The notes: generated from the sequence alone by a model not told the origin. 64,000 nt of DNA from Pseudomonadales bacterium (GCA_024234435.1 JACKOF010000002.1:61695-125694), one strand, 5' to 3'. Shown: positions 1-48,356, counted from the first letter of the stretch. Program-made: numbers and translations.

Positions 1-2550
1 ACCATCATCAGTAACCGTTAGCTCCAGCTGATTATCCACCACCGCCAGCTCCACCAGAATGCGCTTCGCGCGCGCATGACGAACAATGTTGGTAAACGCT
101 TCCTGTGCTATTCGAAAACAGGCTGTTTGGACTTCTTCTGCCAGGAAAGGCAAGGCCGGGGGCAACTTTAAATCCACCTTAAATCCCCTCCCCAGCCGCT
201 CTGCCTGCCGCATGACATACCAGCGCAAAGCGGGGGCCAGACCAAGGTCATCAAGCATTGATGGTCGTAGATTCATCGACAGGTCTCGCACCCTTGCCAC
301 TACCCGATCAATGGACTCCATACCATCTTTCAAGGCCGGCGCCAGTGCTTCGCTGCCGGTCTTGTGCAAAACGGTTTGCAGGTCAAGTTTTACCACTGTG
401 AGCAGCTGGCCAATTTCATCATGCAGTTCCCGAGCGACGTTACGGCGCTCGGCTTCCTGGGCAGACAACATTTTGCGTGAAAGCTTTTCAAGCTGGCGAT
501 TGCTCTCCTGAAGCTCTAGCTCTGCCAGTTTGCGCGCAGTCACTTCCACCACAGCGCCCCGCATTCTTGGAGGTTCGCCCTCGGCGGTGTCTGCCATCTC
601 GCCCCTTGCTGCAATCCAGTGAATGCTTCCATCCGGCCAGATAATGCGAAATTCATGCGAGAACGGAGTTCGATTGGCAATACAGTGCTGCGCCTTGCTG
701 TCAATAGCCTCGATATCATCCGGGTGTATACGTTTGGCAAAAGCCTCATAGGTGCCATCAAATTCGCCATCGAGAAATCCCCACGCCGTTTCATGATAGC
801 GAGACCAAACAATCTGATTACTGGCGATATCCCAGTCAAAAATCCCCAGATGCGCTGCTTCCAGCGCTAAACGAAAACGCTGCTCGCTGGCCCTAAGCTG
901 TTCTTCAGCTTGCTTGCGCCTGGTAATAGTCTCAGAAAAAAGGATAATGCCACCAATCCCTCCGCTCGCCGCCCGCCACGGATGAATCTCCCAGCGTACC
1001 CACTCCTCTTTGCCACTGGCCCGAACGAAGGACTCTTCTTCACATTTTTCTATGCTGCCGGCTAAACAACGCTTGTGCACGTCCTTCCAGTGTGCTGGCA
1101 GGTCGGGAAATACATCATAGTGGCAAAGACCAACAAGATCCCGCTCACCCAGCTCGTAATCAATCAACCAGCGCTGGCTGTAAGCCAGGTAACACATATT
1201 CTGATCAAACATGGCAATTGCCGAAGGTGAATACTGAATGAACAGGCGCAATTTTTCTTCGCTCTCTCGCAACACAAGTTCAGCTGCGTGACGCTCACTG
1301 AGGTCGCGAACAATTGCCATGCAGGAATCTTCATCGATTCGACGCGCGCTGACCTCAGCCAGAAAGGTCGAACCATCCTTGCGGATATGTTCCCACTCCT
1401 CCAGATGTCGCTCACCCGCCATCATTCTCTCAGTGGATGGCCGTAAACGCTTCTTCTCGTCGAATGCCACAATATCGGCAACCCTCATATGCAACAACTC
1501 TTGACGGCTGTAGCCCAGCATTTCTGCACCATGAGGGTTAACATCGAGGTATCGATTGTCGTTAGCAGAGATAATGTAGATGCCGTCATTAGCCTGCTCG
1601 AAGACATTGGCCATCCGGATACGACTCCGCTCCAGAAGCACTTCCGAATGATGCCGACTGATCGCGATAGCAGCAATGCTCGCAGCCGTATCAACCAGTC
1701 TAAACCCTGGCATATCCGGTAGCCCCGGTTCAGAATAATAGACCGCAAAGGTGCCGAGCACTTCACCACCTTTATCAAAAATCGGGGTTGACCAGCACGC
1801 CTTCAAGCCGGACGCCAAAGCAAAAGACCGGTAATCATCCCATAGCGGGTCAAACGTTATATCCTCGACATAAACAGGTTCACGCCGATACATCGCCGTG
1901 CCACAAGAACCTGCTTTTGGTCCGATCGCCTGACCATCAATAGCCGCAATATACTCTGCTGGCAGCCTTGGTGCGGCACCATGGCGGACATGCACACCAT
2001 CTTCTTCCAGCAGTAAAATTGAGCAGATCATTTTTGGATCCTGTTGCTCAATCAGCGTTACCAATGCTGTGAGCGAATCACCAAGCGCTGCACCTCTGGC
2101 AATTTTTTCAAGTATCTGGTTCTGCCCGTAAAGAAACTGTTTGGTTTGCTTCAGTTCCTCAATATCACGCTGTGGCGCCTGACTGTAGAGAATTTCCCTG
2201 CTCGAGAGACGATGTGCAGTGGCACTCAAACTGACATCGCACTTGTCTCCATTCTTTAACAATATCTGAAGCTCTTCACTCTGCGGTTTGCCTGTTTCTG
2301 AGAAATCGCTGAAAACCCTTTCTACCTGCTCACGACAGTCCGGGTGATACAGTTCAAAAATAGGGCGCCCGATAACTTCCGCTTTGGTAAACCCCGTCAC
2401 ATCGCATAAAGTGTTGTTACACTGGGTAATACGCCCGGTATTGGCATCGAGAGAAAAAACCATATCTGGCAAACTACCGGTCACATCTTCTGCTTCCTCT
2501 CCGGTCAAAGCGAGGTTCTTTTTTAAGGTATTGCGCCAGAAAAGCTTCAT
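1..2550 (-). CDS. Sensor histidine kinase, PAS-GAF-PAS-PAS followed by a HisKA_3 (NarX/DegS-type) H-box. The ATPase end runs off the left edge (partial).
   Basis: Absent from the ORF track because it has no stop in the window. Hand translation of the minus strand from ATG (2548-2550) stays open for 850 codons down to base 1. It begins MKLFWRNTLKKNLALTGEEAEDVTGSLPDMVFSLD. It contains a GAF-like block (GSCGTAMYRREPVYVEDITFDPLW), repeated PAS blocks and the H-box ARELHDEIGQLLT near the left edge. Confidence 0.8.
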   Translation of the reverse strand, partial: MKLFWRNTLKKNLALTGEEAEDVTGSLPDMVFSLDANTGRITQCNNTLCDVTGFTKAEVIGRPIFELYHPDCREQVERVFSDFSETGKPQSEELQILLKNGDKCDVSLSATAHRLSSREILYSQAPQRDIEELKQTKQFLYGQNQILEKIARGAALGDSLTALVTLIEQQDPKMICSILLLEEDGVHVRHGAAPRLPAEYIAAIDGQAIGPKAGSCGTAMYRREPVYVEDITFDPLWDDYRSFALASGLKACWSTPIFDKGGEVLGTFAVYYSEPGLPDMPGFRLVDTAASIAAIAISRHHSEVLLERSRIRMANVFEQANDGIYIISANDNRYLDVNPHGAEMLGYSRQELLHMRVADIVAFDEKKRLRPSTERMMAGERHLEEWEHIRKDGSTFLAEVSARRIDEDSCMAIVRDLSERHAAELVLRESEEKLRLFIQYSPSAIAMFDQNMCYLAYSQRWLIDYELGERDLVGLCHYDVFPDLPAHWKDVHKRCLAGSIEKCEEESFVRASGKEEWVRWEIHPWRAASGGIGGIILFSETITRRKQAEEQLRASEQRFRLALEAAHLGIFDWDIASNQIVWSRYHETAWGFLDGEFDGTYEAFAKRIHPDDIEAIDSKAQHCIANRTPFSHEFRIIWPDGSIHWIAARGEMADTAEGEPPRMRGAVVEVTARKLAELELQESNRQLEKLSRKMLSAQEAERRNVARELHDEIGQLLTVVKLDLQTVLHKTGSEALAPALKDGMESIDRVVARVRDLSMNLRPSMLDDLGLAPALRWYVMRQAERLGRGFKVDLKLPPALPFLAEEVQTACFRIAQEAFTNIVRHARAKRILVELAVVDNQLELTVTDDG

Positions 2551-2767
2551 ATTTTTTATTCTATTCCATCAGTGACTCGGCTAACTATAAGCACTTACAA
2601 CCCGTGCCGCTACCTTTCCAAGACCGCAAAAAATAATCCGGTTACAGCCCTTGAGCCGTATACTCACATCCGTATGTACAAACTCGTATGGTAAAGCTAT
2701 GGTATCGCTTTTATCTGGCCACGTCCTTGATCAAAGTACATTAGCGAATTGAATCGAGCCCAACCGC

Positions 2768-3388
2768 ATGAACATACAAAAATTAAAGCGCGCTGAAGCC
2801 CAGTTTTTACAGGTGTATCCACAAGGTTTTTTGCACCCAGACATGCAGGCTATTGCAAAAAAGCACCGGCTTGCGCAGATGTCCTCCTTGACACAGGAGA
2901 GTTTCAGCAAAAAGCAATTCTCCACCCCGCTGACGATCACCGAGAACATGTCAAAAATTATTGGTCGCTCATCCATGGTTTCAATGTTCGAAAAGCCCAA
3001 ATTTCGAGACGCTATCAAAGCAATGGATAGCGATATGAAACACACTCTTGCGAACGGACTGAAAAAACTGTTGCACGGAAACCAGCAACAAGGCTTTGAG
3101 CAGATGGTTCAGGTACTGGCGCATTACAAACTCGCAAAATGGTCGTTGATCACCATTTTGCCAAACTACTTCTCGCCGGACACAGAAGTGTTTGTCAAAC
3201 CCAACACGACAAAGGGGATTATCAGATTTTTCGAACTGGAAGATCTGGTATACAAACCGCAACCAACCTGGAATTTTTATGAACAGTACCGGAGCATCAT
3301 AACCGATATGAAATCACAGGTTGACGCCTCGCTATTCCCCAACAATGCTGCTTTCACCGGATTTCTGATGATGAGCCTGGAAAAATAA
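2768..3388 (+). CDS. Hypothetical protein (206 aa), no recognised domain
   Basis: Clean ORF with an ATG start, divergent from the kinase gene. No motif recognised. Confidence 0.55.
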   Translation: MNIQKLKRAEAQFLQVYPQGFLHPDMQAIAKKHRLAQMSSLTQESFSKKQFSTPLTITENMSKIIGRSSMVSMFEKPKFRDAIKAMDSDMKHTLANGLKKLLHGNQQQGFEQMVQVLAHYKLAKWSLITILPNYFSPDTEVFVKPNTTKGIIRFFELEDLVYKPQPTWNFYEQYRSIITDMKSQVDASLFPNNAAFTGFLMMSLEK

Positions 3389-3411
3389 GCAATCGACACT
3401 GGAAGCCGCTG

Positions 3412-4548
3412 TTATACCTCTTCGTAAATACTGATCTGGTCCGGTGTAAGGCCATTCAGACAATAGTTGATCAGGCGCTCAACCATAGACGACGACATAG
3501 CCTGCCCCTTTTTAACCAGCAACTGTCCATTAGTACTGCGGATATCGTCGGCGATCACCATATTTTCTGACAACTGTGTCACCCGTATGACCTTTACCAC
3601 CCTCTCCGTGCTGGCGCCCATAACAGATTCCAGCGCCTCCAGAACTTTAGGATCATAGAGGTGTTTGTTGGATTTTAATTTTGCCAGCGCTTCACTCTCC
3701 GAAAGCCCTGCACAACCAAAAACCAGATCCAGCACCAGTTTCAGAATGCGGGCACCCTGAGGGATATCATCCCCGGCCACATCGTCGATAGGAATGCCCG
3801 AGCCGTCGTAACATTTATTCTGGTAGCGAACAATTTCCGAAATACCTTCCAACCGGGGAATTTTATCAATTAACTGACCACCAATTTCCGGGTACTTATC
3901 AAAAATAAGCCGTTCGTCTTCCGTCAGCGGATTACCACGGATCACTTTGTCCACCATGCTTTCGGGAAGAGTGACCGCACCAATTTGACCAAGTAATGCG
4001 GCCGCCTCAAGCTCCCACAGGTTGCCAATCCCCATCTGCCCGGCACACTTGACCATGTAATCCTTGATCGTAGGTGCATAGCCAAAAATCCTCGGACTTG
4101 CAATGGAAAGGATCTCAACCATGGCCTGAATACTGCCTTTCACGGTTTCTTCCAGTAGCTCTTTTTCAGCCCTGAGCAAGCGGTGATGGCTGAGTGCAGC
4201 ATTAATGGCTGAGGTCATTTCTTCCGGAGAGCAGGGTTTGTTCAGAAACCGATAAACGTCACCGACATTGACTGCGGATACCACCGTACCCTGATCTGCA
4301 TTGCCCGTTAGCATGATTCGGACCGTGTCCGGGTATTTCTCCTTCATGACGGACAAAAACTGCGCGCCATTCATTTCCGGCATATTCATATCGGAAACAA
4401 CAACCGGAAACGGACCTTCCTTCCCAGCAATCTCCAGAGCCTGTTTGCCACCAGTAGCCGGCACCACATTGAAGCTTTTCCTGAGTGTACGCTGATACGC
4501 CTGCAGGATATTGGGTTCGTCATCAACAAATAGTATTCGTTCAGCCAT
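3412..4548 (-). CDS. Response regulator: REC domain plus a degenerate HD-GYP-like output domain
   Basis: N-terminal REC (FVDDEP, VVVSDMNMP, LNKP). The C-terminal region has HD-GYP architecture, but HD is replaced by GQ (AALLGQIGAV) and HHExxDGxGYP by RYQNKCYDGSGIP. It sits 14 nt downstream of the REC-HDOD gene. Confidence 0.85.
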   Translation of the reverse strand: MAERILFVDDEPNILQAYQRTLRKSFNVVPATGGKQALEIAGKEGPFPVVVSDMNMPEMNGAQFLSVMKEKYPDTVRIMLTGNADQGTVVSAVNVGDVYRFLNKPCSPEEMTSAINAALSHHRLLRAEKELLEETVKGSIQAMVEILSIASPRIFGYAPTIKDYMVKCAGQMGIGNLWELEAAALLGQIGAVTLPESMVDKVIRGNPLTEDERLIFDKYPEIGGQLIDKIPRLEGISEIVRYQNKCYDGSGIPIDDVAGDDIPQGARILKLVLDLVFGCAGLSESEALAKLKSNKHLYDPKVLEALESVMGASTERVVKVIRVTQLSENMVIADDIRSTNGQLLVKKGQAMSSSMVERLINYCLNGLTPDQISIYEEV

Positions 4549-5758: not shown

Positions 5759-8002
5759 TTAAAGTTTCTGTTCAGGCTGTTCTTCAGAGTCTGCCCCACT
5801 CTGCTTGACAGGCAGCAGGATTCTGAACGTTGTGCCAACACCGACGGTACTGTCAACCTCGATCTTGCCACCGTGCTTTTCAACAATCATCCGGTAAGCA
5901 AGGCTGAGGCCCTGACCGGTGCCTTTACCAACACCCTTCGTGGTAAAGAAATGGTCGAAAATCTTTGATTTTACCGACTCAGGCATGCCTGCCCCGTTGT
6001 CACTGATTTCAATAGCGATTTTGTCCTCAAGACTTTTAGTCTTGATCCCAATACGTCCCTCGAGGTTGTCAGGGTCATCATATCTTTCAACAATAGCGTG
6101 GGAAGCGTTGACAATCATGTTCAACACCACCTGATTAATATCGCTCACAACGCATTCAACCATCGGCAGACCTTCTTCAAACTCCGTTTCCAGCACCGCA
6201 AAGTACTTCCACTCCGAGCGGGAAATCGTGACGGTGCTGTCGATAGCCTTATTAATATCAGCCAGCTCGATGGATTCGCCAGGGTGGGAGTAGTCCTTCA
6301 TTGCCCGGATGATGCGCGCAATGGATGAAATCCCTTCATAAGACTGAACCAGTGCGGGTGTAATTTCGCCCTCCAGGTATTCAAGATCGACTTCTTCACA
6401 CTTACTTTCCACAGACTCGGCCAGTGCCTGCACACCACTCGCCTTAACTTCCTCACGCAAATCACCAACCAGCTTCAGCACATCAGCCACCGAGTCCTGC
6501 AGGAACACCAGGTTATCGGAAATAAACTGCGCTGGCGTATTGATTTCGTGAGCAATACCCGCAGCCAGTTGCCCCACGGACTCCAGCTTCTGGGCATGCA
6601 GCAACTCCTCTTCTATCCGTTTTTTCTCCTGGCCTGCCTGCTTGAACTCAGTGATGTCCACAACCACACCAACCAGTGACTTAACAACGCCGGACTCCAG
6701 CTTGGCGGAACAAAGCTCTCTCGCCCATATCGTGTTTTCGCCAGACTGGATACGATACTCAACACTGACAACCGACGAATTCGCAGTGATGGCATCAATC
6801 TGCTGTTGCCGCAACTCGATATCTTCCGGGTGTATCTTTTTAGTGAGATCGGCAATATTGCCAACACTGTCTGCCCGCTCTCCCCAGATCCTTGCAATAC
6901 CCTTACTGATGTAGAGGAATTTGCCAGAAGCCGCGTCATACTCATAGACACAGCCATGAATGGTATTAATGATGGCATCCAGCTTGTTTTTCGATTCATC
7001 CAGTTGTACAAGCAGCGTTTCTCTCTCATTTTTTTCCAGCTGCAGGCGGGTCTTGGCGTTCTCGAGGTTAGCTGTGCGCTGGTGAACCAGTTTTTCAAGA
7101 TCACGATTATGAGCGGCCAGCTGATTTCTCAACAGGTAGGCCTTGCGAGAAAAGGTTGCCCCGGAAGCCAGCACCACAAAGGCAACAAACAAAAACAGAT
7201 AGGAATATCGTACTGACCTTTGCAGCTCCGTATCATATTGATCGCGCAATTCCTTCTGAAGCCTGTCTGCCAGTACTGCGAGTCTCTTCTGGAAACTTTC
7301 CCCCTGCTTGAAGGCACCTTCTACAACAGGCGTATTGGCATAAATCACCTCCAGATGCTTTTCAATAAACCCTACAAACTGCTGTACCTCCTGCCACTCA
7401 ACGCCTGTGAACTTTTGCTTGATATCCGCCAGCTCTGCATCCACGTCCTGTCGGTAGACATCGTTTTTGAAATAACTCAATTCAAGCAGACTTTTTTTCA
7501 ATGCCGAAAAGTTTTCCTTCATCGAAGGATGGGCATCAATCATCGGCTGCAGATCATCGATCAACTGAAAAACAATAATTTCAGAATTTCGCAACATCGA
7601 AAAGCTGGTTTTAAAAGTATTGGCAATAGGCGCAGAATCGATACACAGCTTAACCAGTGGCTCGACATCAAGACTTATTTCCTTCTGGTTAACCTTCCAT
7701 GCACTCCAGAGATCAAATGGTTCAGAAGGAGCAGACTTCAAGCTGACAGAGAAGTCTGTCACAACTGCAACCATCTGAAGCTCTTTCTCGGTCAGCTGAT
7801 CAAAGTCGAACCGCCTGCCACTGCGCACTTTATGTGCGGCCACATCCAGCTCACGAACTGTCAGGCGCAACCGTTCAAACCTGTCCTGCCAGGCCACGTA
7901 GCTGGTCTTATAGCGATTGATACTCAGCCAGAAAAAAGTCACCAGAAGAACCGCGACCACCAGAATCACAAGAACCCTGAAAAAAGAAAAATACTTTCTC
8001 AT
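5759..8002 (-). CDS. Membrane sensor histidine kinase (two TM segments, about 240-aa periplasmic region, coiled coil, PAS, HisKA, HATPase_c)
   Basis: N-terminal TM (VLVILVVAVLLVTFFWL) and second TM (YSYLFLFVAFVVLASGATF). H-box AAGIAHEINTP. N/G boxes (VVLNMIVNASHA, DNGAGMP, GKGTGQGLSL). Its ATG overlaps the stop of the upstream peroxidase gene (ATGA, 7999-8002). Confidence 0.9.
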   Translation of the reverse strand: MRKYFSFFRVLVILVVAVLLVTFFWLSINRYKTSYVAWQDRFERLRLTVRELDVAAHKVRSGRRFDFDQLTEKELQMVAVVTDFSVSLKSAPSEPFDLWSAWKVNQKEISLDVEPLVKLCIDSAPIANTFKTSFSMLRNSEIIVFQLIDDLQPMIDAHPSMKENFSALKKSLLELSYFKNDVYRQDVDAELADIKQKFTGVEWQEVQQFVGFIEKHLEVIYANTPVVEGAFKQGESFQKRLAVLADRLQKELRDQYDTELQRSVRYSYLFLFVAFVVLASGATFSRKAYLLRNQLAAHNRDLEKLVHQRTANLENAKTRLQLEKNERETLLVQLDESKNKLDAIINTIHGCVYEYDAASGKFLYISKGIARIWGERADSVGNIADLTKKIHPEDIELRQQQIDAITANSSVVSVEYRIQSGENTIWARELCSAKLESGVVKSLVGVVVDITEFKQAGQEKKRIEEELLHAQKLESVGQLAAGIAHEINTPAQFISDNLVFLQDSVADVLKLVGDLREEVKASGVQALAESVESKCEEVDLEYLEGEITPALVQSYEGISSIARIIRAMKDYSHPGESIELADINKAIDSTVTISRSEWKYFAVLETEFEEGLPMVECVVSDINQVVLNMIVNASHAIVERYDDPDNLEGRIGIKTKSLEDKIAIEISDNGAGMPESVKSKIFDHFFTTKGVGKGTGQGLSLAYRMIVEKHGGKIEVDSTVGVGTTFRILLPVKQSGADSEEQPEQKL

Positions 8003-8970
8003 TTGAGCTCCTCTTCTACTTCACCAGTCAGCGTCAGCAAAAATGCCTCAATTTGATCAACCTGACTCTCAGTGATGGGGCGCCCCAATTGATAGCGAGC
8101 CATAACGCGGATGGCATCACCCAACGTTTCAGCACTGGCATCGTGAAAATACGGCGCGGTGAGAGCGATATTGCGCAAGCTGGGAACCTTGAACTTGAAG
8201 CGATCTTCTTCCTTACCGGTCACATTGTATCTGCCATAATCCGCCTTCTTTATATTCCCTCGATCCTGAAAATAGTTGTCCATAACGCCGAAATACTGAA
8301 ACAGGTTGCCACCCAGATTTTGCCCCTGATGACAGGAAACACAACCCATGTTTTTGAACAACTGGTAACCCGATTTAGCCTTTTCGCTGATAGCATCAGC
8401 TTTGCCATATAAATACCGATCAAAAGGTGAGCTAACCGTGATCAAGCGTCGCTCGAAGGCCGCAATAGCCTTGGCGATATTAACTGCATTGATACCATCG
8501 GAATAAAACTGGTTGAACATCTTCTTGATGCCGGGTTCTTTTTCCAGCTTGCCGATCACTTCCGGCCAGCTGCTGTCCATTTCAAGCGGATGATGCACGG
8601 GATCAGACACCTGCGCTTCAAGACTGGGAGCCCGCCCGTCCCAGAACTGAAAGGGATTCAGCCCACTGTTAAACACAGAAGGTGTATTAATCTCCCCCCT
8701 TTTGCCATCCACACCAACCGCTACCGGCAGACCATCGTCACCGCCTTCCGCGAGATTGTGACAAGAGGCGCAGGAAATACTGTTGTCGCGGGAGAGCAAT
8801 GGACTGTTAAACAGTATCTTGCCCAGCGCCACTTCCTCAGGATAATAGAACTCTCGGTCTTCTATGGGATAAACAGGTTCCGAAAATGCTGCAGAAGGGA
8901 ACACCGAAGCAATCAGCGAGAAACCATGTAAAACGACTGTGATGGAAAATACCAAACCCGATGTTTTCAT
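7999..8970 (-). CDS. Di-haem cytochrome c peroxidase (CCP/MauG family), periplasmic
   Basis: Signal peptide, two CxxCH haem motifs (CASCHN and CVSCHQ) and typical CCP blocks (FWDGRA, PSLRNIALTAPYFHD). Confidence 0.9.
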   Translation of the reverse strand: MKTSGLVFSITVVLHGFSLIASVFPSAAFSEPVYPIEDREFYYPEEVALGKILFNSPLLSRDNSISCASCHNLAEGGDDGLPVAVGVDGKRGEINTPSVFNSGLNPFQFWDGRAPSLEAQVSDPVHHPLEMDSSWPEVIGKLEKEPGIKKMFNQFYSDGINAVNIAKAIAAFERRLITVSSPFDRYLYGKADAISEKAKSGYQLFKNMGCVSCHQGQNLGGNLFQYFGVMDNYFQDRGNIKKADYGRYNVTGKEEDRFKFKVPSLRNIALTAPYFHDASAETLGDAIRVMARYQLGRPITESQVDQIEAFLLTLTGEVEEELK

Positions 8971-9189
8971 GCCGTACTCGTCCTACGTAACAGGTGGGCA
9001 AATTATTATTATGGCCCGAGCATAGCAAAGTAATCAGAACGAAGTCGAACAGGATAACGCTGTTTATTTGACTCACGTCACAAAAAAACAGCAGACGCAG
9101 ACCGGAAACAGGGCCAGGCAAGTTTTATTTTTGCAAAGAAAGAAGCGTGACAATCGAAGACTATAATAGTGGGGAATAAACCCCAAGAA

Positions 9190-9378
9190 CTAACCTGAGG
9201 ATCGCTTGCCCCCGGAAGATTCCTTGTTTTTACCAGCCCGCTCTGCCACTTTAGATCGCTGCTCTTTCCGCTCTTCCAGCACTTCAAGAAACGGAAACAG
9301 ATACTTTTCAGAAAAAAACACGACAGACATAAGCACAACCAGCATTATAAATAACGCTACCGCTAATTCTCCATACAT
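9190..9378 (-). CDS. Possible small membrane protein (62 aa: one N-terminal TM, charged Lys/Glu/Ser tail)
   Basis: ATG preceded by AGGGAT about 7 nt upstream. Hydrophobic N-terminus (LAVALFIMLVVLMSVVFF). No homology recognised and it could be spurious. Confidence 0.3.
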   Translation of the reverse strand: MYGELAVALFIMLVVLMSVVFFSEKYLFPFLEVLEERKEQRSKVAERAGKNKESSGGKRSSG

Positions 9379-9474: not shown

Positions 9475-9708
9475 TTAATTGTTAAATTTGTAGTCTCCCG
9501 CTACAAAAGATCGCTTGCCAGCGAGAAGATCCTGTCTCAACTGCTCAATATTCACCATTCTTGACCCTCCAACCTTGACGGTTGGTATCGCCCTGGTTGT
9601 TACCCAGGAACGAATCGTTTTCGTTTCCTTGCCAATCAACTGGGCAAACCGGTCTTGCGATAACAAGGGAGGCATGGATACGAAGTTAATTTTTTCAGCA
9701 AGTTCCAT
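9475..9708 (-). CDS. Small HTH DNA-binding protein resembling phage P2 Cox / excisionase-type regulators
   Basis: 77 aa. The pattern SQDRFAQLIGKETKTIRSWVTTRAIPTVKVGG matches, from memory, the Cox-family pattern (EFAKLIGKS..AVRRMIDKGKLP). Divergent from a C-repressor-like gene. Confidence 0.55.
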   Translation of the reverse strand: MELAEKINFVSMPPLLSQDRFAQLIGKETKTIRSWVTTRAIPTVKVGGSRMVNIEQLRQDLLAGKRSFVAGDYKFNN

Positions 9709-9814
9709 TTGTTAATTACCACTGCGTCAAATAGAATCAAAAACTACACGGCAACATCAGCAAAATTAGAGACTAGCACATTTGTGTTATTAATACACGG
9801 TAATTATTATACCA

Positions 9815-10057
9815 ATGAGCAATATCGGCGACAGAGTACGTAGCCTGCTGGAAATACGCGGCATGCCAAACAAGCTTGAAAGCATGACTGGCATAGACCG
9901 TGACACTTGGCGCAATGTTCGTTATGCCAAACAAAAAGTCAACGAAGACCACATCACCGCCGTTTGTGAAGCCTTTCCGGAGTATCGTTTGTGGGTGGAA
10001 ACAGGTCACACGGCCCCGGATAAAGGCCAAATCTGTCCGGACAATTCGGACAAATAG
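9815..10057 (+). CDS. Small HTH repressor resembling the phage P2 C / Phage_CI_repr-type immunity repressor
   Basis: 80 aa. HTH region (IGDRVRSLLEIRGMPNKLESMTGIDRDTWRNV). The C-terminal YRLWVETGHTAPDKGQICP resembles the P2 C tail (recalled as Y.MWFMTNQIAPESGQIAP). Confidence 0.55.
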   Translation: MSNIGDRVRSLLEIRGMPNKLESMTGIDRDTWRNVRYAKQKVNEDHITAVCEAFPEYRLWVETGHTAPDKGQICPDNSDK

Positions 10058-10338
10058 TATTCACAGCTCATCTATGCCTGCTGCTCACGCCGAAACCTCT
10101 TTCTATCACAGCCTCCCTCATTATGCACTTGAGCGATCACCGCAGGCCATAAATGGCCGGTCAACGTGCTTCATTAACACATAAAAACAAAACACAACCA
10201 ACGGTTGTTGCCGTAACAGCAAACCACTTGGCATAACAACATATTGTGGTTATCATGCCCTGATTAGCACAATATAAGCGTAAGCCTCCGCTCGCAATTG
10301 GGCACGTTAAATAACAACTCTCGGTGAAAAACTAGGAA

Positions 10339-11280
10339 ATGACCCTGTTTAACCGGTTAAATAATAAAAAATCGTCAAAGAAAGGGGTTGTCGGGATAGA
10401 AGTTGGGGATAGAGGTGTTGCATTCGCACATCTGAAGCTTTCCCCCAGCTTGGCTCTGACAAGCTGTAATTACCTGACGGCTGCTGACGAAACATCCATC
10501 ATCTCGACTCTCAGGGAGGATATCTCTTCCCTCCATCTGGAGAACACCCCCTGTAATGTTGCCCTCTCAACAGATGATTACGCTCTTTTGCTGGTCGAAC
10601 CTCCCAAGGTGCCTGAGAATGAACTGAGGGATGCCATTCAGTGGAAGATCAAGGATCTTAGCCCAATTCCTATTGAAAAAGCCGTGATAGACGTCTTTCG
10701 CATGCCAGAAAATGCCGGTTCCGTCGGTAAAGGTATGGTATTTACCGTCGTCGCCAAAAAAGCGGCTGTTGAAAACCTGGTGTCTCTGGTTGAAGGTGCC
10801 GGTCTGAAAATGAACGCCATCGATATACCGGAGCTGTGCCTTCGCAATTTTGCTCTGCTCCAGCACTCGGAGCAAAGCATGCTGATTGCCAGGCTAATGT
10901 CTGACAATTCTCAGGTAACGGCCATATCCCGAGGCGAGTTGTACCTCAGTCGCTTATTTAACTTCCGCTACACGGGTGGTGTCATTTCTGAAGAAAGGGC
11001 CGAGAACCTGACACTGGAACTGCAACGTTCGGCAGACTACCTCCGTCATCAGATGCACCAGCCCACACCCAGCCAGATATTACTGCTGGGCAACGGACTG
11101 CAGGATCGCGACCTGCCTGAATCCATTAATGACAATTTCTCCGGTGAAGTAAAAACACTGGATATAAGCGATGCTCTCCCGATAACAGCAGGTGTTGACA
11201 GGCAAGTACTCAACCGCTGTGCCATTGCCATCGGTGCAGCCCTGCGCGACCATGTGAGCACCCTGGGAGTCAACCGTTAA
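10339..11280 (+). CDS. mshI: MSHA pilus biogenesis protein MshI (PilM-like, actin-fold assembly protein)
   Basis: First gene of a colinear msh operon. PilM-like N-terminus (VVGIEVGDRGVAFAHL). The call rests on position and order. Confidence 0.75.
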   Translation: MTLFNRLNNKKSSKKGVVGIEVGDRGVAFAHLKLSPSLALTSCNYLTAADETSIISTLREDISSLHLENTPCNVALSTDDYALLLVEPPKVPENELRDAIQWKIKDLSPIPIEKAVIDVFRMPENAGSVGKGMVFTVVAKKAAVENLVSLVEGAGLKMNAIDIPELCLRNFALLQHSEQSMLIARLMSDNSQVTAISRGELYLSRLFNFRYTGGVISEERAENLTLELQRSADYLRHQMHQPTPSQILLLGNGLQDRDLPESINDNFSGEVKTLDISDALPITAGVDRQVLNRCAIAIGAALRDHVSTLGVNR

Positions 11281-26655: not shown

Positions 26656-26671
26656 TCGTGAGTTTTGAAAC

Positions 26672-27046
26672 ATGAGCCTTCGCCTGTTGTTACCCCTGAT
26701 GTATATGGCAATACTGTTTGCACTGTCATCCATTCACGGTGGCGCAAGCGCCACCCCGGCAGAGGAATTGCTGGCCTGGTTGCCTCCGGGAATACAGAAC
26801 CTGCTGCACATCCCGGTTTGGGCGGGGCTGACAGGCTGCTGGGTATGGGCGCTCCAAAGGAATCATTATCCGCTTTTGCTGGCAGCAACGTTCTCGGTTA
26901 GCTATGGCATAGTTGACGAGTTATACCAGCGCACAGTTCCCGGCCGCTACGGCTCTCTGACTGACCTGTTATTTGATACTATTGGCGTTATTGCCACCTT
27001 ATTGCTGGTCGCCTGTTTCAAAAAATCATCGTCGGCAATAACATGA
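26672..27046 (+). CDS. VanZ-like family membrane protein
   Basis: 124 aa with four hydrophobic segments and a VanZ-like block (GIVDELYQRTVPGRYGSLTDLLFDTIGV). Starts 17 nt after mshQ. Confidence 0.7.
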   Translation: MSLRLLLPLMYMAILFALSSIHGGASATPAEELLAWLPPGIQNLLHIPVWAGLTGCWVWALQRNHYPLLLAATFSVSYGIVDELYQRTVPGRYGSLTDLLFDTIGVIATLLLVACFKKSSSAIT

Positions 27047-27104: not shown

Positions 27105-27977
27105 ATGAACAGACTTTCTCTCTCGGGCACTTTCATGAACAAAACCCTTGGTTTTATGATCGCAGGGCTGCTAATCGTCGGCCTGGAGGCTCATGGTAAA
27201 TCAGCCAGCAGCTCCCCTGAAGGGCTGGCCCTTGCCAAAGCGGTGTACGACAGACCAACGGGCGAGGATGCCAGCTCAAGAGTGCTGATGATATTAACCC
27301 GTCAGGGAGGCGAACCCAGACAGCGCCTTCTCTACAGCTACGCCAAGGATAAAGGTGATGCAGAGCGCTGGACACTGATGCGATTTATCCAGCCGGAAGA
27401 CGTCGACAAAACCGGCCTGTTAACCAAGGATTATGAAGGCGATGACAGCGACCAGTGGTTGTACCTACCGGCCCTTGACCGGGTGCGGCGCATTTCATCT
27501 TCTCGCAAAGGCGGTCGCTTTGTTGGATCGGATTTTTATTATGAGGACCTGAAAGATCGCGAAGTGAATATGGACCACCACCGCATTATCGGCAAGGACA
27601 AGGTGGGTGGTGTGACCTGCGTTTTGCTGGAAAGTATCCCGGTAGAAAAATCGAACTCCGTTTATTCAAAACGCGAGAGCTGTATTTACAAAAAATTGAT
27701 GATTCCACTGCGAATAGACTACTACAGCAGAAAGTCAGAGCAGCCCGTGAAACGCCTGCAAGCCAGAAAAATCAAGAAAATACAGGGTTACTGGACCATC
27801 TTTGACAGCACCATGGTCAACCTGAAAACGGGACACAGTACCAAGCTGATCACAACCGATATCCGTTATGATCAGGATATCCCTGACGCTCTGTTCAGTC
27901 AGCGAGGATTATCGGATGACAGTCGGGAAAAACCGTTCAGACCGCAGAGTGACAGCGCAAGAACCGATCAGGAATGA
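27105..27977 (+). CDS. LolA-like outer-membrane lipoprotein-sorting family protein
   Basis: Signal peptide, then the characteristic block DQWLYLPALDRVRRISSSRKGGRFVGSDFYYEDL. The start may be the second Met at 27135. Confidence 0.7.
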   Translation: MNRLSLSGTFMNKTLGFMIAGLLIVGLEAHGKSASSSPEGLALAKAVYDRPTGEDASSRVLMILTRQGGEPRQRLLYSYAKDKGDAERWTLMRFIQPEDVDKTGLLTKDYEGDDSDQWLYLPALDRVRRISSSRKGGRFVGSDFYYEDLKDREVNMDHHRIIGKDKVGGVTCVLLESIPVEKSNSVYSKRESCIYKKLMIPLRIDYYSRKSEQPVKRLQARKIKKIQGYWTIFDSTMVNLKTGHSTKLITTDIRYDQDIPDALFSQRGLSDDSREKPFRPQSDSARTDQE

Positions 27978-27999
27978 ACAAAATACAAGGAACACACCC

Positions 28000-29496
28000 A
28001 TGAATATCAAAACCATCGCGCCCCTGTTACTCACCACACTGGTTCTGAATACCTATGCGGAAGACAGTGAAGAGTTGCTGATTATTGAAGATGAAGAAAC
28101 ACTGATCATGGAAACAGATCACCATGATTCAGAAACCATCGTACTGGAAGAATCAGGCGAAGTTGGCTCTGAAGACGATATACTCTTGATAGATGACGGC
28201 GCTGATGAACGCGAGATTGTGGAAACGGCACAGGATGTCGACCTACCCCCTTCCACTATTGCACAACACACAGAAGACCGTGCCGAAAAGCCTGACGGGG
28301 AGCTGGTTTTTAAGGCTGACAACCTATGGGCAGAGTACGGTGCTTTCAGCAACAGCAACTCGGCAGCCGATCACCAGGGGTACGCACACGGTCAGGCAAC
28401 CCTGTCGTGGACCGATGGCTCTCAGTGGGAGGTACAGGCCTCGGCCAGAGTGGATGGTTACACCGAGTCCGGCAAGGAAGACTGGCATGATGTCACCATC
28501 GATTACGACGAAACCTTCATTCGCTACAAATCCGAAAGCTCGATTTTAACGGTAGGCGCACAGAAAATCCTCTGGGGACGGATTGATGAGTTCCCACCCA
28601 CCGACCGCCTCAGCACACAGGATTTACGCCGTTTTGTGATTGATGACCTGAAAGACCGCCGTCTTGCCTCAGCTGCCATTCGCTACGAACATTTCTTCGG
28701 CAATAACAAGATTGATCTGATGATTTTGCCCGCTTTCCGTGAAGCGGAATTGCCGGATAAAGACAGCATCTGGTACCCGGTCAATCAACACACCGGTGAG
28801 ATACTGGGGCTAGAAACGACACCTGCTCTTGAAACCCTTATCAAAAGCACCCCGATCAAAAATGATGAGCCCAGTTCGGAAGGCGGCGCTGGCCTTCGTT
28901 TCAGCAGTATCGGCTCCGGTCTGGACTATGGCCTCAGCGTTCAATATGGTCGTCAGACACTACCCTACTTCAGCTATAACGCAACGGACGGTTTAATCGA
29001 AGCACGCTACCCCAGAAGCTGGATTGTTGGCGGCGATATCGGTGTCGAGGCTTTTGGTGGCACCTTGAAATTCGAAGCGGCCTGGCTTGGTGACACACCC
29101 GTCACCAGAATCAACGGAACATTTGACACCGTTGAAAGTGTCAACTGGGGAGCGGCATGGGAAATTTTCCCAGGTGATGGCGACGGCCGCATCAATCTGC
29201 AAATTACCGGCATAAAATTGCTCAACGCTTCTTCTGTGCTGGATAGAACCGAGATTTACGCGTTTAATGGCTCTTATGAAATACCGTTTGCCGACAACCA
29301 GTGGCGCTTTAAAACACGCTTTTTCGCGGGCCTCGACGACAAGGACTTCTACCTCAATCCGGAGCTGGCCTATACCGGCTGGGACGCTCAGGAAATCTAC
29401 TTGGAAGCACACTGGTTTGACGGCGACAATGGCACAGTCGGTGGATTCCATGAAGACAACACATTGCTGACACTGGGCTGGCGAGCGGACTTTTAA
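28000..29496 (+). CDS. Putative outer-membrane beta-barrel protein with an acidic N-terminal region
   Basis: ATG at 28000 with AAGGA upstream. Signal peptide MNIKTIAPLLLTTLVLNTYA. Alternating beta-strand-like sequence. C-terminal beta-signal ending ...LTLGWRADF. Confidence 0.6.
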   Translation: MNIKTIAPLLLTTLVLNTYAEDSEELLIIEDEETLIMETDHHDSETIVLEESGEVGSEDDILLIDDGADEREIVETAQDVDLPPSTIAQHTEDRAEKPDGELVFKADNLWAEYGAFSNSNSAADHQGYAHGQATLSWTDGSQWEVQASARVDGYTESGKEDWHDVTIDYDETFIRYKSESSILTVGAQKILWGRIDEFPPTDRLSTQDLRRFVIDDLKDRRLASAAIRYEHFFGNNKIDLMILPAFREAELPDKDSIWYPVNQHTGEILGLETTPALETLIKSTPIKNDEPSSEGGAGLRFSSIGSGLDYGLSVQYGRQTLPYFSYNATDGLIEARYPRSWIVGGDIGVEAFGGTLKFEAAWLGDTPVTRINGTFDTVESVNWGAAWEIFPGDGDGRINLQITGIKLLNASSVLDRTEIYAFNGSYEIPFADNQWRFKTRFFAGLDDKDFYLNPELAYTGWDAQEIYLEAHWFDGDNGTVGGFHEDNTLLTLGWRADF

Positions 29497-29673
29497 CAGG
29501 AATTAACCATTAACAACGAGAGTAACAACCCAGCTCACACCGAAAAGCTTTATCGCAGCCGACTGGCAGATGAAAGCCAGCCTTATGCTGTTCTGCACTA
29601 CGGCATTGTCGTTTTTGCCAATGACGCATTTGCAAGGCGTCTGGGGCTTGCCAGTGGTCCAGACCTTGAGTCG

Positions 29674-32187
29674 ATGCTGATTCTGGATTTTGTGCCAGAA
29701 CCGGAGCAGAGTCAGGTTCGCAGCTATCTGGATCAGGCAGTACAGACGACTAAAAATGACACGCCTCACGAACAGACCTGCACGTTCAGAGGTGTTGACG
29801 GCCAATCAATACCCGTGCAGCTGCAGGCCTGTAAAACACTTTTCGATGGCGAAGTGGCTGTTGAGCTTCAACTGCAGACGGCAGAAGATCTTACCCTCGC
29901 CAAACGGGTTCGACGTTTGCCCTGGCACCTGTATTTCAGCTTTGTCTGTCTGGCTCTGATTATCACCATACCCAACCTGTTGTTACCAAACCTGAACATC
30001 AACAACACACCATCAACATTTCTTCCTCCAGATGCGCCGTCTATTGTCGCCGACAAAAAGGTCAGGGAAACTTTCCCTGACGATGAAGTGATCGTATTGC
30101 TCTTTGAGGGCGTTGCACTTTTCTCAGACGGCTTCCTCCGCGCCTACCATGCCCTGACAGAATCACTGGAGGAACACCCGTTAATCGATGATGTGGTCAG
30201 CATCAGTCGACAGGATCATATCAGCGCCTCTGAAAACGGATTCCTCGTTGCACCATTGATCAACATTGAAGAACTCGCTGAAACCAGCCCAAAGGAACGC
30301 CTTGCCAAAGCGGTGGGCGACCGGTTTGCCAAAAATTCGCTGGTCGCATCTGACGGATCGGCAATTGCCATGGTGGTCATTCCCCAGGCGCTGAACAACA
30401 GCATCAAACACCTGGCTCTGGAAGAAGATGTACTGGCACTTGTCAGGCAGCATCGCATAAACGGTTACCTTACTGCCATGGCCGGAGAGATCAGTACCGA
30501 TGTGGCCCAAATGCGAATTATTCAGCGGGATAATATGATTTTTATACCCGCCACCGTCATTGCCGGACTGCTACTGATATGGCTATTGTTTCGCCGCGTT
30601 ATTGCTGTGGTAACAACAGGAGTAGCAACCAGTGCCGTTGTTGGTTCGACCCTTGCTTTCTATGTGGTATTCGAGCAACCCTTTAACTCCATTTCCGGGA
30701 TTATTCCACCACTCCTGTCAGCATTGACGATCGCCACCCTGATCCACTTTTACAACGCCCTGCACTACGCTTCCATGCGCGGTCTGTCAGGCAAGCGGCG
30801 CGTTGATTCCGCCCTGCGCGAGGTCAAACGGCCTGCGCTGTTCAGTGCATTGACCACATCAGCAGGTCTGGCTTCACTTGGGCTAAGCCCAATACCGCCG
30901 ATCAAGGTATTTGGTCTGACAGCAGCAGCGGGTGTATTTGTCATTTATTTCATCGTGATTCACTTGCTGCCGCCGATCTTCGCCCGCTTTGACCGGCAGG
31001 AGTGGCCAAACCGGAAATCGGGCCTGCTACTGATCGACAAGCTGGTGCGTGGACTTTTTCACATTGGTATCCGGCAGCCCGTGGTAGTGCTGGTCATGTT
31101 TGTTCTGCTTCTGGGGGCCGGTGTTCCCTATATACTGAAAGTTGACGTCGAAACAGACGTACAGGCATTTTTCCACCCCGGTCACAAGTTGCGCAAGGCA
31201 ACCGAACACATCCAGCAAAAACTGGTTGGCACCATGCCGTTGGAAATCATATTAACCTCGGCAGAACCAGAAGAGCTGATCCAGCCGGAAGTACTGATCT
31301 ACATACGGGAACTCCAGACATGGCTTGAGCAACAACCGGAAGTCGACAAAACAGTGTCCATTGCAGATTTTGTAGAAGAAATGCATTGGGGCTTCAATGC
31401 AGAAAATCCCACCTTCCGAGCAATACCCGACAACCCTGAACTGATCAGTCAGTACCTGTTTGTTTACGATGGTGAAGATCTGTATGACTTTATTGACGAG
31501 GAATACAGCATCGCCCGAATTCCACTGAATCTCAATGTTCATGGCGCTAACGAGATAGGGGAGGTGATGCTTCGCATCAGGCAGCAACTGCAGGAAACCC
31601 TGCCAGCCAATATCAGCTGGGACACTGCCGGGGCCGCGCGCATGTTTTCAGACCAGGAAGACCTTCTCATCAAGGGACAGGTTTACAGCCTGGGCGGCGC
31701 ACTGCTACTGATTTTTGTATTGATGCTGGCCCTGTGGCGATCCCTGAAGGATGCACTGATCTGCATGATTCCCAACCTGTCACCTGTCTTGCTGATTTTC
31801 ATTTTGATGGGGATCATGAGCATCTGGCTGGATATGGCAACGGCCATGATCGCCAGTGTTGCTGTTGGCATTGCCATTGATGACACCATCCACATATATC
31901 ACGGTTTTATCCACCGGGTGCGACGGGGCACCAATCCTGTTATGGCAATGGCCAGAACCTACCGGCAGGCAGGCAGAGCGGTTATGACAACCACTATTAT
32001 CCTCTGCTCACAATTTGTATTGATGCTGGCAAGCGCCTTTGTGCCCATGAACAGTTTCGGACTGCTCACCAGCACAGGTCTGCTGGCGGCGCTGGTATTC
32101 GACTTGCTGCTGTTACCGGCTCTGTTGATTCTGGTTTTTAGAGCAAAATCCTCTAACACACCTGCCCACAGCCAAGCGGCTGCATAA
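29674..32187 (+). CDS. RND-superfamily exporter (MMPL/COG1033-like, 12 TM in two bundles) with an N-terminal PAS domain. The true start may lie upstream (frame open from 29497).
   Basis: Two 6-TM bundles each preceded by a large loop (GEISTDVAQMRIIQRDN; MFSDQEDLLIKGQ; AIDDTIH). A PAS-like sequence precedes the first TM and continues upstream of the first ATG. Confidence 0.85.
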   Translation: MLILDFVPEPEQSQVRSYLDQAVQTTKNDTPHEQTCTFRGVDGQSIPVQLQACKTLFDGEVAVELQLQTAEDLTLAKRVRRLPWHLYFSFVCLALIITIPNLLLPNLNINNTPSTFLPPDAPSIVADKKVRETFPDDEVIVLLFEGVALFSDGFLRAYHALTESLEEHPLIDDVVSISRQDHISASENGFLVAPLINIEELAETSPKERLAKAVGDRFAKNSLVASDGSAIAMVVIPQALNNSIKHLALEEDVLALVRQHRINGYLTAMAGEISTDVAQMRIIQRDNMIFIPATVIAGLLLIWLLFRRVIAVVTTGVATSAVVGSTLAFYVVFEQPFNSISGIIPPLLSALTIATLIHFYNALHYASMRGLSGKRRVDSALREVKRPALFSALTTSAGLASLGLSPIPPIKVFGLTAAAGVFVIYFIVIHLLPPIFARFDRQEWPNRKSGLLLIDKLVRGLFHIGIRQPVVVLVMFVLLLGAGVPYILKVDVETDVQAFFHPGHKLRKATEHIQQKLVGTMPLEIILTSAEPEELIQPEVLIYIRELQTWLEQQPEVDKTVSIADFVEEMHWGFNAENPTFRAIPDNPELISQYLFVYDGEDLYDFIDEEYSIARIPLNLNVHGANEIGEVMLRIRQQLQETLPANISWDTAGAARMFSDQEDLLIKGQVYSLGGALLLIFVLMLALWRSLKDALICMIPNLSPVLLIFILMGIMSIWLDMATAMIASVAVGIAIDDTIHIYHGFIHRVRRGTNPVMAMARTYRQAGRAVMTTTIILCSQFVLMLASAFVPMNSFGLLTSTGLLAALVFDLLLLPALLILVFRAKSSNTPAHSQAAA

Positions 32188-46454: not shown

Positions 46455-48356
46455 ATGAATGACCTGCCCTGGCTACTGCCTGCTCCTGAAAATTTTAACG
46501 AGCAATGCGCGCAAATGCTCTCTGCTGATAACAGCCTGGACCGGGCCTGCCAACTGGCAGCCACATCGCTTTCATTGAACCAGTGCAACCGACTGATCAA
46601 AGCTCTGGACAAAAGCCATGATCAACAACAGGCCACCAAATCGCCACTGACACACTTCAAGCTCGGTATCGTCAGCAATGCCACGTTTAACCTGTTTGTA
46701 CCGGCGCTACGAGCCTCAGCGCTTCGCCACGGTATTTTACTTGATGTTGTGTTAGCCGATTTTGACCAGATTATGCAAGAAGCATTAAACCCTGAATCCT
46801 TGATCAATAGTGCCGATGTCGATGCCATATTGATCGCACTGGACCATCGGGGCTACCCTTTCGCTACTGACACCCTTGCCAGCACTACACCCGATACCAC
46901 CGCAGCAGATGCCGTCGAACACCTGAACCAACTGCGTTCGGGGTTTGCACGGCACAGTGGTGCTCCCTGCATAGTGCAAACGCTGGCATGCCCACCCTTT
47001 CCGTTACTGGGAGGGCTTGATACGCAACTGGCAGGGCTGTTGCAAAAAGAAATCCGGGATTTCAACAGCCAACTTTGCGATATTGTCGCCGACAGCACGG
47101 ACATCATGCTCGATATAGCTTCACTTGCCAGCCGCGTCGGAACCGGTCAATGGTTTGATGAGCGGCAATGGTTAATGTCTCGCATTGCCATGGCTAACGA
47201 ATTCATCCCCCTATACTGTGATCATGTTGCCCGCACCCTGGCTGCCATGCGCGGCAAAAGCAAAAAATGCCTTATTCTCGATCTGGATAACACACTTTGG
47301 GGTGGCGTGATTGGTGACGATGGCATGGATGGCATACATATCGGCCAGGGTCATCCTGTGGGAGAAGCTCATCAGGCCATACAGCGGTATGCAAAAGAGC
47401 TGAAAAATCACGGCATTATTCTTGCGATTTGCTCAAAAAATGAAGAAGCCATCGCCCTGCAACCATTCCGGGAACATCCCGATATGGTGTTGCAAGAAGA
47501 GGACATCGCTGTATTCGTTGCCAACTGGAATGACAAAGCCAGCAATATTCAGCATATTGCCCGTACACTCAATATTGGCACCGATGCACTGGTGTTTCTG
47601 GATGATAACCCAATGGAACGCGATATTGTCCGGACGGTATTACCCGAAGTTTCAGTTCCCGAATTACCCGATGATGCAGCGTTGATTCCACGCACACTGG
47701 CTGCGGCAGGCTACTTTGATTTAATCAGCTTTACCACTGACGATGCCCAGCGAAGCGAGCAGTACCGCGCCAATGCTATACGTCAGAAGGCTATGGAGTC
47801 TTCCGGGAATATCGACGACTACCTGGCCAGCCTGGATATGGCCATTGAGTTCAAAGCCTTTGATGCCAGCGGACGCAAACGCATCACACAGCTGATCAAC
47901 AAAACCAATCAGTTTAACCTGACAACCCGACGCTATACCGAAGCAGAAGTGGAACAGTTTGAAGTAAACCCGCAATACATCACCCGGCAGGTTCGACTTT
48001 CCGACAAATTTGGTGACAACGGCATGATCAGTGTGCTGATCGCCAAGAAAGAGCAGGACTGTCTGATTGTTGACACTTGGCTCATGAGTTGCCGGGTAAT
48101 TAAACGCCGCGTTGAAGATGCACTTTGTGACGAACTGGTCGCCGCAGCAAAAGCTGAGGGCATCACAACCATCCGTGGTGTCTACCTTCCTACGTCCAAA
48201 AACCCCCTGGTAAAAGAACACTACCAAAATCTGGGTTTTTCTCTCATTGACAGCACTGATGGCACCGACACATGGGAACTGAACATCAACGATTATCAAG
48301 CCAAAACACCCCCCATGTCCGTCACAAGACAATCACCTGAAATGGTCGGGGCCTGA
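46455..48356 (+). CDS. FkbH-like protein (HAD-IIIC phosphatase domain plus FkbH/GNAT-like C-terminal domain)
   Basis: HAD motif I LILDLDNTLWGG, motif II ICSKN, motif IV FLDDNP. Also INKTNQFNLTTRRY and WLMSCRVIKRRVE blocks. Confidence 0.85.
   Translation: MNDLPWLLPAPENFNEQCAQMLSADNSLDRACQLAATSLSLNQCNRLIKALDKSHDQQQATKSPLTHFKLGIVSNATFNLFVPALRASALRHGILLDVVLADFDQIMQEALNPESLINSADVDAILIALDHRGYPFATDTLASTTPDTTAADAVEHLNQLRSGFARHSGAPCIVQTLACPPFPLLGGLDTQLAGLLQKEIRDFNSQLCDIVADSTDIMLDIASLASRVGTGQWFDERQWLMSRIAMANEFIPLYCDHVARTLAAMRGKSKKCLILDLDNTLWGGVIGDDGMDGIHIGQGHPVGEAHQAIQRYAKELKNHGIILAICSKNEEAIALQPFREHPDMVLQEEDIAVFVANWNDKASNIQHIARTLNIGTDALVFLDDNPMERDIVRTVLPEVSVPELPDDAALIPRTLAAAGYFDLISFTTDDAQRSEQYRANAIRQKAMESSGNIDDYLASLDMAIEFKAFDASGRKRITQLINKTNQFNLTTRRYTEAEVEQFEVNPQYITRQVRLSDKFGDNGMISVLIAKKEQDCLIVDTWLMSCRVIKRRVEDALCDELVAAAKAEGITTIRGVYLPTSKNPLVKEHYQNLGFSLIDSTDGTDTWELNINDYQAKTPPMSVTRQSPEMVGA

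Follow-up and report, generated by a model that had tools for sequence, protein, structure and literature searches.

Why would a bacterium carry two phage-type regulatory genes, set apart from any phage, at the entrance to a pilus operon? The question is raised by positions 9,475 to 10,338 of a 64,000-nucleotide stretch of DNA, hereafter the window, from a Pseudomonadales bacterium (GCA_024234435.1, JACKOF010000002.1:61695-125694), in which two small helix-turn-helix (HTH) genes, here termed xis and C, are transcribed divergently just upstream of the MSHA pilus (msh) operon. An earlier note made on this DNA had described the pair as an orphan P2-type C/Cox switch and had offered, as a hypothesis, that it was domesticated to control pilus expression. 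The layout described there was reproduced: the two genes diverge across 106 bp (Table 1), and C points into msh, whose first gene, mshI, starts at 10339, 281 nt 3' of the C stop codon. Both genes are single-copy in the source genome, an assembly of 3.1 Mb in five contigs that is 97.5% complete, and together with a small membrane-protein open reading frame (ORF) that follows xis they make up what is termed here the trio. As set out below, what has been kept here is a domesticated lysogeny switch from a filamentous phage of the Pf type (Inoviridae), one that has outlived its phage; we consider it probable that it serves the cell through superinfection immunity and that msh is not its dedicated target.

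The plus-strand product, C, is assigned by its profile matches to the Pf4r/P2 C repressor family. It matches phrog_147 over its full length (E 3.5e-17, residues 2-78), and both the C repressor of P2 (E 3.2e-41) and the 'repressor protein C' of a Pf phage (E 5.1e-26) are full-length members of the same family. The earlier note had likened C to the P2 immunity repressor, C-terminal tail included, and had advised a profile comparison with P2-type repressors; that comparison, now run, bears the family relationship out. A profile of the C family aligned to P2 C with hhalign at 96.5% probability, tail included, and the family alignment carries a conserved W..TG..AP..GQI.P tail, which reads APDKGQICP in the window protein, APESGQISP in its relatives and APESGQIAP in P2 C. 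Family membership does not, however, make P2 the nearest relative. Among solved structures the best matches to C were Pf4r (6WNM) and Pf6r (6X6F), at E 1.2e-9, as against E 0.11 for the P2 C structures 2L49 and 2XCJ. Because of this difference, and of the tblastn matches of Xis given below, the closest characterized system is Pf4r/XisF4 of the filamentous Pf phages and not P2. C is homologous to proteins whose structures are dimeric (6WNM, 6X6F, 2XCJ/2L49), and it may itself dimerize.

The minus-strand product, Xis, is a member of the XisF family of Pf phages: it matches phrog_2951 at E 1.2e-17, the family that the Pf 'excisionase' XisF itself matches at E 1.6e-55, and in tblastn searches it is 44% identical (E 2e-11) to orf90 of Pf1 and to the Pf 'excisionase'. 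Its family alignment shows a winged-helix HTH with an invariant C-terminal GK..F..GDY motif. The suggestion that this product is of the Cox type held for the fold and failed for the family. An AlphaFold (AF2) model (pLDDT 74) adopts the excisionase winged-helix fold, with Foldseek neighbors that include Pukovnik Xis (TMt 0.75), BldC, RdfS and P2 Cox (4LHF, TMq 0.61), all at weak E-values for this tiny protein. Against this, the Pfam family Phage_Cox (PF10743) scored 15.5 bits, under its cut-off of 27.5, phrog_272 (Cox) was matched at E 0.0085, and an hhalign comparison with P2 Cox reached 56% probability with only a 30-residue HTH aligned. With P2 Cox, Xis shares the excisionase fold alone.

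The third gene codes for a protein of 62 residues with an N-terminal transmembrane helix, an (S/A)(E/D)xY(L/V)(F/L)P motif and a charged tail. A counterpart of 42-66 residues occupies the same position in nine of the nine trio loci read, with the transmembrane helix and the motif kept, and the copy in the related genome G013 is matched pairwise at E 7e-6. No match to a known family was returned by PHROG or PADLOC searches. This gene is less constrained than its neighbors (median dN/dS ~0.5), and a hairpin at its end, resembling a terminator, likely closes the predicted xis/small-ORF transcript.

How closely does the locus resemble the systems to which its proteins point? In Pf4, pf4r and xisF4 are divergent genes with overlapping 5' untranslated regions whose products repress one another, XisF4 acting in addition to activate replication and excision (Li et al., PMC7379572), and Pf4r is a dimeric homologue of P2 C and the immunity factor (Ismail et al., PMC8402870). 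The Pf4r/XisF4 systems of Pf4, Pf5 and Pf6 resemble the present locus in that both proteins are homologous and the two genes are divergent over about 110 bp, an arrangement seen for repressor C and excisionase in the Pf phage PfAC02a; the 5' overlap mapped in Pf4 (PMC7379572) is predicted here. The differences are equally clear. Pf switches are attached to a phage, whereas the present one stands without integrase, rep, coat or Zot genes; it has been passed on vertically and conserved across a clade of hosts; a small membrane-protein gene follows xis where Pf phages have replication and structural genes; and the operator and box sequences differ, those of Pf being repeats of the TACTTAGTA type. 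The C (CI)-Cox (Apl) switches of P2 and 186 share with the locus a repressor of phrog_147 with an APESGQIxP tail, divergent genes with face-to-face promoters in a region of 106-114 bp (as annotated for P2), and an antagonist of the same fold class (P2 Cox 4LHF against the window Xis, TM 0.61). They depart from it in that the window Xis falls outside the Cox family and that the source phage was an inovirus and not a myovirus.

Repressors of orphan or cryptic prophages are known to be kept for superinfection immunity. Such repressors are, like the present locus, lone immunity modules left after prophage loss; what sets this locus apart is that the whole bidirectional switch was kept (repressor, antagonist and an extra gene), promoter and operator DNA included, over divergences of genus level or deeper. 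In the literature only phage-borne examples of Pf-type switches were found, and the Pf4r/XisF4 switch is known solely within active filamentous prophages of Pseudomonas. The type of switch is not new; what is new is a complete Pf-type switch without its phage, conserved in a clade and joined by a small membrane-protein gene. Such a locus offers a natural case for asking what a host may gain from the decision circuit of a phage in the phage's absence, whether immunity, exclusion or regulation.

That the pair is an orphan, as the earlier note had held for the window, proved to be true of the whole genome. No integrase, replication or structural phage gene lies around the pair in the window, where neither a cognate integrase nor an att fragment was found beside the trio and the nearest integrase is ~23 kb off in an unrelated island. 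Searches of the 3.1-Mb genome by tblastn with every protein of an intact inovirus prophage, carried by the same-family genome G006, found only Xis and C and no homologue of rep, ssb, coat or Zot genes, and the Zot family PF05707 had no match in the window genome or in G013, G020 and G050 by a search that does detect the G006 prophage. The inovirus genes other than the switch (rep, ssb, coats, Zot and integrase) are gone from this genome.

The switch itself is far from gone. The pair is intact in every locus fetched (among them the window, L025, L026-31, L032-34, L035, L036-38, L040, L041-44 and G013), none of which carries phage structural genes; the trio is intact in all of the at least 14 fetched loci that extend past xis, and both genes are conserved in at least ten independent loci. 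By the Nei-Gojobori method dN is 0.13-0.19 with dS saturated; the median dN/dS values of C and xis are 0.075 and 0.077, respectively. Strong purifying selection acts on the pair, which is maintained, not decaying. From locus to locus C and Xis diverge in step with a flanking chromosomal gene, termed TP_0789-like (Spearman rho 0.83 for pairwise identities, the pairs not being independent). This co-divergence indicates vertical inheritance over genus-level or deeper divergence, through a clade of marine Porticoccaceae. Among species representatives the close trio is scarcer than msh.

The noncoding DNA between the two genes was aligned across seven loci. A 45-nt block that adjoins the xis start codon is nearly invariant although synonymous sites are saturated, and within it lies a predicted repressor promoter, PC. 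This promoter block is 72 nt upstream of the C start codon, and the spacing is the same at a lone second C gene, C', in G013; since the same block precedes C' there, it can be tied to expression of C. Over the PC -10 hexamer lies the 13-mer GTCAAATAGAATC, which is a candidate Xis binding site by analogy with the repression of Pc by Cox. It is present in 29 of the 49 loci fetched, that is, in every pair-bearing locus except the distant G050 and the Pf phage, with one copy at each xis-C pair and an additional one ahead of the lone C', and it has a single occurrence in the window genome. In the G006 prophage and in G020, whose C proteins are ~30% and Xis proteins 57-59% identical to those of the window, the box is tandemly duplicated.

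On the other side of the region, next to C, a second conserved block is shared by every trio locus, and the heteroimmune copies of G006, G020 and the C' of G013 have a different sequence there. Because it is conserved within the trio family and yet differs in heteroimmune copies, it is a candidate operator for C. It holds the first of two imperfect inverted repeats that the earlier note had listed, GTGTTATTAATACAC at 9784-9798, which is present as described with arms that match at five of seven positions. It also overlaps the predicted xis promoter, Pxis, at whose columns six of the seven aligned loci have a TATAAT/TATAAA-like hexamer. The two promoter-like sites are conserved and so placed that convergent, overlapping transcripts would result: PC, beside xis, and Pxis, beside C, are predicted to face one another, with transcripts overlapping by ~55 nt.

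This arrangement bears on the earlier proposal that the first repeat overlaps a TATTAT box from which a leaderless C mRNA might start. The TATTAT sequence (9805-9810) is to the right of the repeat, at a distance of 7 nt, and the two do not overlap. As a start for C it was rejected, being merely 4 nt from the ATG and reading, on the opposite strand, as TGGTATAAT, a better promoter for xis. A leaderless transcript is further disfavored by the face-to-face arrangement of PC and Pxis and by the invariant promoter-like site 72 nt upstream, which also accompanies the lone C' of G013. Direct repeats of the form TACACGG(C/T)AA, considered as C operators, were set aside as they are not conserved in other loci.

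Table 1. Genes and predicted signals of the trio and of the msh promoter, in window coordinates.
Feature	Position	Strand	Remarks
Terminator-like hairpin with T-run	9181..9200	minus	End of small ORF
Small membrane-protein ORF, 62 aa	9190..9378	minus	Third member of the trio
xis gene, 77 aa	9475..9708	minus	ORF call
Intergenic region xis/C, 106 bp	9709-9814		Genes diverge across region
Predicted repressor promoter PC, TTGTTA-17-TAGAAT	9709..9737	plus	Inside 45-nt block
Candidate Xis box GTCAAATAGAATC, 13-mer	9726..9738	plus	Overlaps PC -10
Conserved right-hand block, candidate C operator	9781..9811		Overlaps xis promoter; holds GTGTTATTAATACAC
Predicted xis promoter Pxis, extended -10 TGGTATAAT	9806..9814	minus	Read from sequence; faces PC
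C gene, 80 aa	9815..10057	plus	ORF call
Sigma-70-like msh promoter, TTGGCA-17-TATCAT	10228..10256	plus	Conserved upstream of mshI in L025, L033

From what kind of element did the trio come, and by what route did it reach its present place? The intact prophage of G006, a surviving relative of the ancestral phage, carries a homologous pair (Xis 59%, C 31% identical) in the order int, zot, a pVI-like gene (phrog_1242), minor coat, major coat, a 76-aa ORF, ssb, rep and xis, with C and a 204-aa ORF on the other side of the switch, and it is bounded by copies, of 63 bp and 48 bp, of the 3' part of tRNA-Met(CAT). This is the site used by Pf6 and the 'Pf-tRNA-Met' phages, whose attB is tRNA-Met and whose attP is a 46-bp fragment of it (PMC7549136). 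In the metagenomic relatives L032, L035, L036 and L038 an intact tRNA-Met has its 3' end only 140-330 bp from the orphan trio, and in L025 a 46-bp tRNA-Met fragment stands beside it. The orientation of the orphan trio at tRNA-Met equals that of the G006 prophage with the stretch from xis to the tRNA deleted. The earlier note had advised a synteny comparison; in it the pair is not always beside msh, msh-less relatives having kept the trio.

In the window genome the tRNA gene and the trio have been driven apart. No tRNA gene was found in the window, and the order is read from the contig to which it belongs (C2), on which genes for LptB-RpoN-PtsN-RapZ-MgtE-DarP are followed by tRNA-Met (46855-46931). 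Next come a short integrase scar (49 aa) and a second tRNA fragment (47153-47204), then an island of 11 kb that carries a 389-aa integrase, a cytosine DNA methyltransferase-like gene and four large ORFs and ends at a perfect 46-bp tRNA-Met repeat (58059-58104), and beyond it 13 kb of signaling genes with a di-haem peroxidase gene, the trio (at 71.2 kb) and msh. From this order the trio is therefore the innermost and oldest layer of an island hotspot at tRNA-Met, and islands that arrived later pushed it ~24 kb from the tRNA gene.

Several features of the hotspot are worth recording in their own right. The interval C2:46855-58104 looks like tandem accretion of islands at tRNA-Met(CAT). In L026/L027 positions 1-3910 make up a defense island of the hotspot, with AbiEi/AbiEii, a type I restriction helicase subunit, an integrase fragment and a tRNA-Met fragment, ~6 kb from the trio. 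The C' gene of G013 (L009, G013:C156, 2072-2937) is a lone C-type gene, 56% identical, with its own invariant promoter block and without xis, followed by a 164-aa ORF; another inovirus, heteroimmune and inserted at this site too, probably left C' behind.

On the reading that we favor, the switch of an inovirus would still work as a mutual-repression circuit with its promoters face to face. C would bind the right-hand block and shut off Pxis, and Xis would bind GTCAAATAGAATC over the PC -10 and shut off C, such that the resident outputs would be C on one side and Xis with the small membrane protein on the other. When a related inovirus enters the cell, resident C would silence its early promoter in the manner of Pf4r, and the small membrane protein may add exclusion. 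Because purifying selection holds with or without msh, the locus is probably a retained immunity cassette rather than a pilus regulator.

Several points weigh against this reading. Superinfection immunity is attributed to the trio by analogy with Pf4r, and the promoters, the operators and bistability are predictions. Among the loci examined no inovirus shared the immunity type of the trio (C identity of 70% or more), and immunity alone leaves an intact xis and small ORF unexplained. Directly beside the window trio the search for a tRNA-Met att fragment gave nothing past chance 6-10-mers. Finally, msh lies downstream of C and is co-directional with it in three lineages, and read-through or weak cross-talk may occur.

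In another interpretation the trio is a decoy that senses phage: Xis from an incoming inovirus would hit GTCAAATAGAATC, C would be turned off and Pxis on, and the small membrane protein would then block pili or secretion or abort the infection. The Xis box is kept even in the G006 prophage and G020, whose repressors are heteroimmune; Pxis has no resident output but the small ORF, whose transmembrane helix and motif are maintained throughout the loci read; and PfsE, a small membrane protein of the Pf phages themselves, carries the annotation of a superinfection-exclusion factor. No homology of the small ORF to PfsE or to a defense family was detected, however, and it is only weakly constrained, as its dN/dS shows. 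We regard this interpretation as unlikely; if true, it would describe a host-owned, bistable sensor of filamentous phages, a defense made from a phage decision circuit and stationed at a tRNA-Met hotspot beside a type IV pilus locus.

What, then, of the pilus? A domesticated switch that controls MSHA, with C or Xis acting on the msh promoter or C reading through into the operon and with bimodal piliation as the outcome, is also improbable in our judgment, though it has circumstances in its favor. C is co-directional with msh and adjacent to it in the window, in L025 and in L033; L032 has kept a 5' remnant of mshI beside its trio; the msh promoter carries a conserved inverted repeat; Pf4r reportedly affects host genes (PMC8402870), and MSHA pili are reported as receptors of filamentous phages of vibrios. 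The gene orders tell against a dedicated target. In the window the trio is followed by msh (10339 to ~27050), an operon of TP_0789-like, 509-aa and MMPL genes (27105-32187) and a TPR gene, and in L026-31, L035, L038 and L041-43 the trio is followed by the same TP_0789-like/509-aa/MMPL and TPR genes, with 125-175 bp between C and the TP_0789-like gene. Because the orders with and without msh otherwise agree, msh is a present-or-absent block of ~17 kb. In G013 and L040 what follows C is an aminotransferase gene, and the trio is equally intact whether C precedes msh, the TP_0789-like/MMPL operon or that gene. The distribution of msh is patchy (12 of the 41 genomes searched; four of 25 in the same family), and the three diverged lineages with msh directly downstream of the trio (window, L025 and L033) include two, L025 and L033, with different far flanks, Fic in the one and a peroxidase in the other. 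In L032 the mshI remnant is part of a 1406-bp segment (7061-8466, 97.4% identical to 2210-3615 of L033) that comprises the trio and the first ~110 codons, the 5' third, of mshI, and abuts tRNA-Met/DarP, with the rest of msh and ~80 kb of the region equivalent to the window missing or moved. From this layout it follows that deletions occur at the locus. The block also holds, past the final msh gene and ahead of the TP_0789-like one, a VanZ-like small membrane ORF (26671-27043, ~120 aa), which is absent from the msh-less relatives together with the block.

The msh operon is served by a conserved, sigma-70-like promoter of its own, 83 nt ahead of mshI, and the second inverted repeat of the earlier note, ATAACAACATATTGTGGTTAT at 10233-10253, was found where described and lies within the spacer of this promoter. 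Conserved also is a 15-nt inverted repeat, ATATTGTGGTTATCA / TGATTAGCACAATAT (10241-10275), which spans the -10 of the msh promoter and recurs in L025 and, in part, in L033, and which may be the operator of some msh regulator. This repeat was not found in distant msh loci, which are too diverged to inform. The conserved motifs of the switch are single-copy genome-wide, no second copy being found elsewhere in the genome, the msh promoter included, with as many as 4 mismatches allowed in 28 nt. Because the switch motifs are unique and the trio is independent of msh, the proposal that the switch controls pilus expression is not supported; on this evidence the adjacency of msh is best read as a historical accident at a variable locus. 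Reading so striking a neighborhood as an accident removes a tempting regulatory story that the evidence does not bear.

The position of the trio in a tRNA-Met island hotspot suggests a further role, in which Xis would serve the islands as a recombination directionality factor or as a regulator and C would time their excision. Islands with integrases of one family (59-81% identical) do occupy the interval from the tRNA to the trio in the window genome, L026/27 and L040. No specific relationship links these island integrases to that of the G006 inovirus, and being unrelated to it they were rejected as partners of Xis; moreover, in L032, L035 and L036 the trio persists without any island or integrase between itself and the tRNA. 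We hold this role to be quite improbable. That the trio is a neutral, functionless scar of a decaying prophage, as the loss of all remaining phage genes might suggest, is hardly credible given two genes intact at every locus examined with dN/dS ~0.07 and dS saturated, a nearly invariant noncoding block, and co-divergence of the trio with the host flank.

More distant xis/C pairs occur in L011 (G050, 9549-10159) and L012 (G020, 9949-10518), in genomes without Zot, and for this reason orphan Pf-type switches may recur outside the clade described here.

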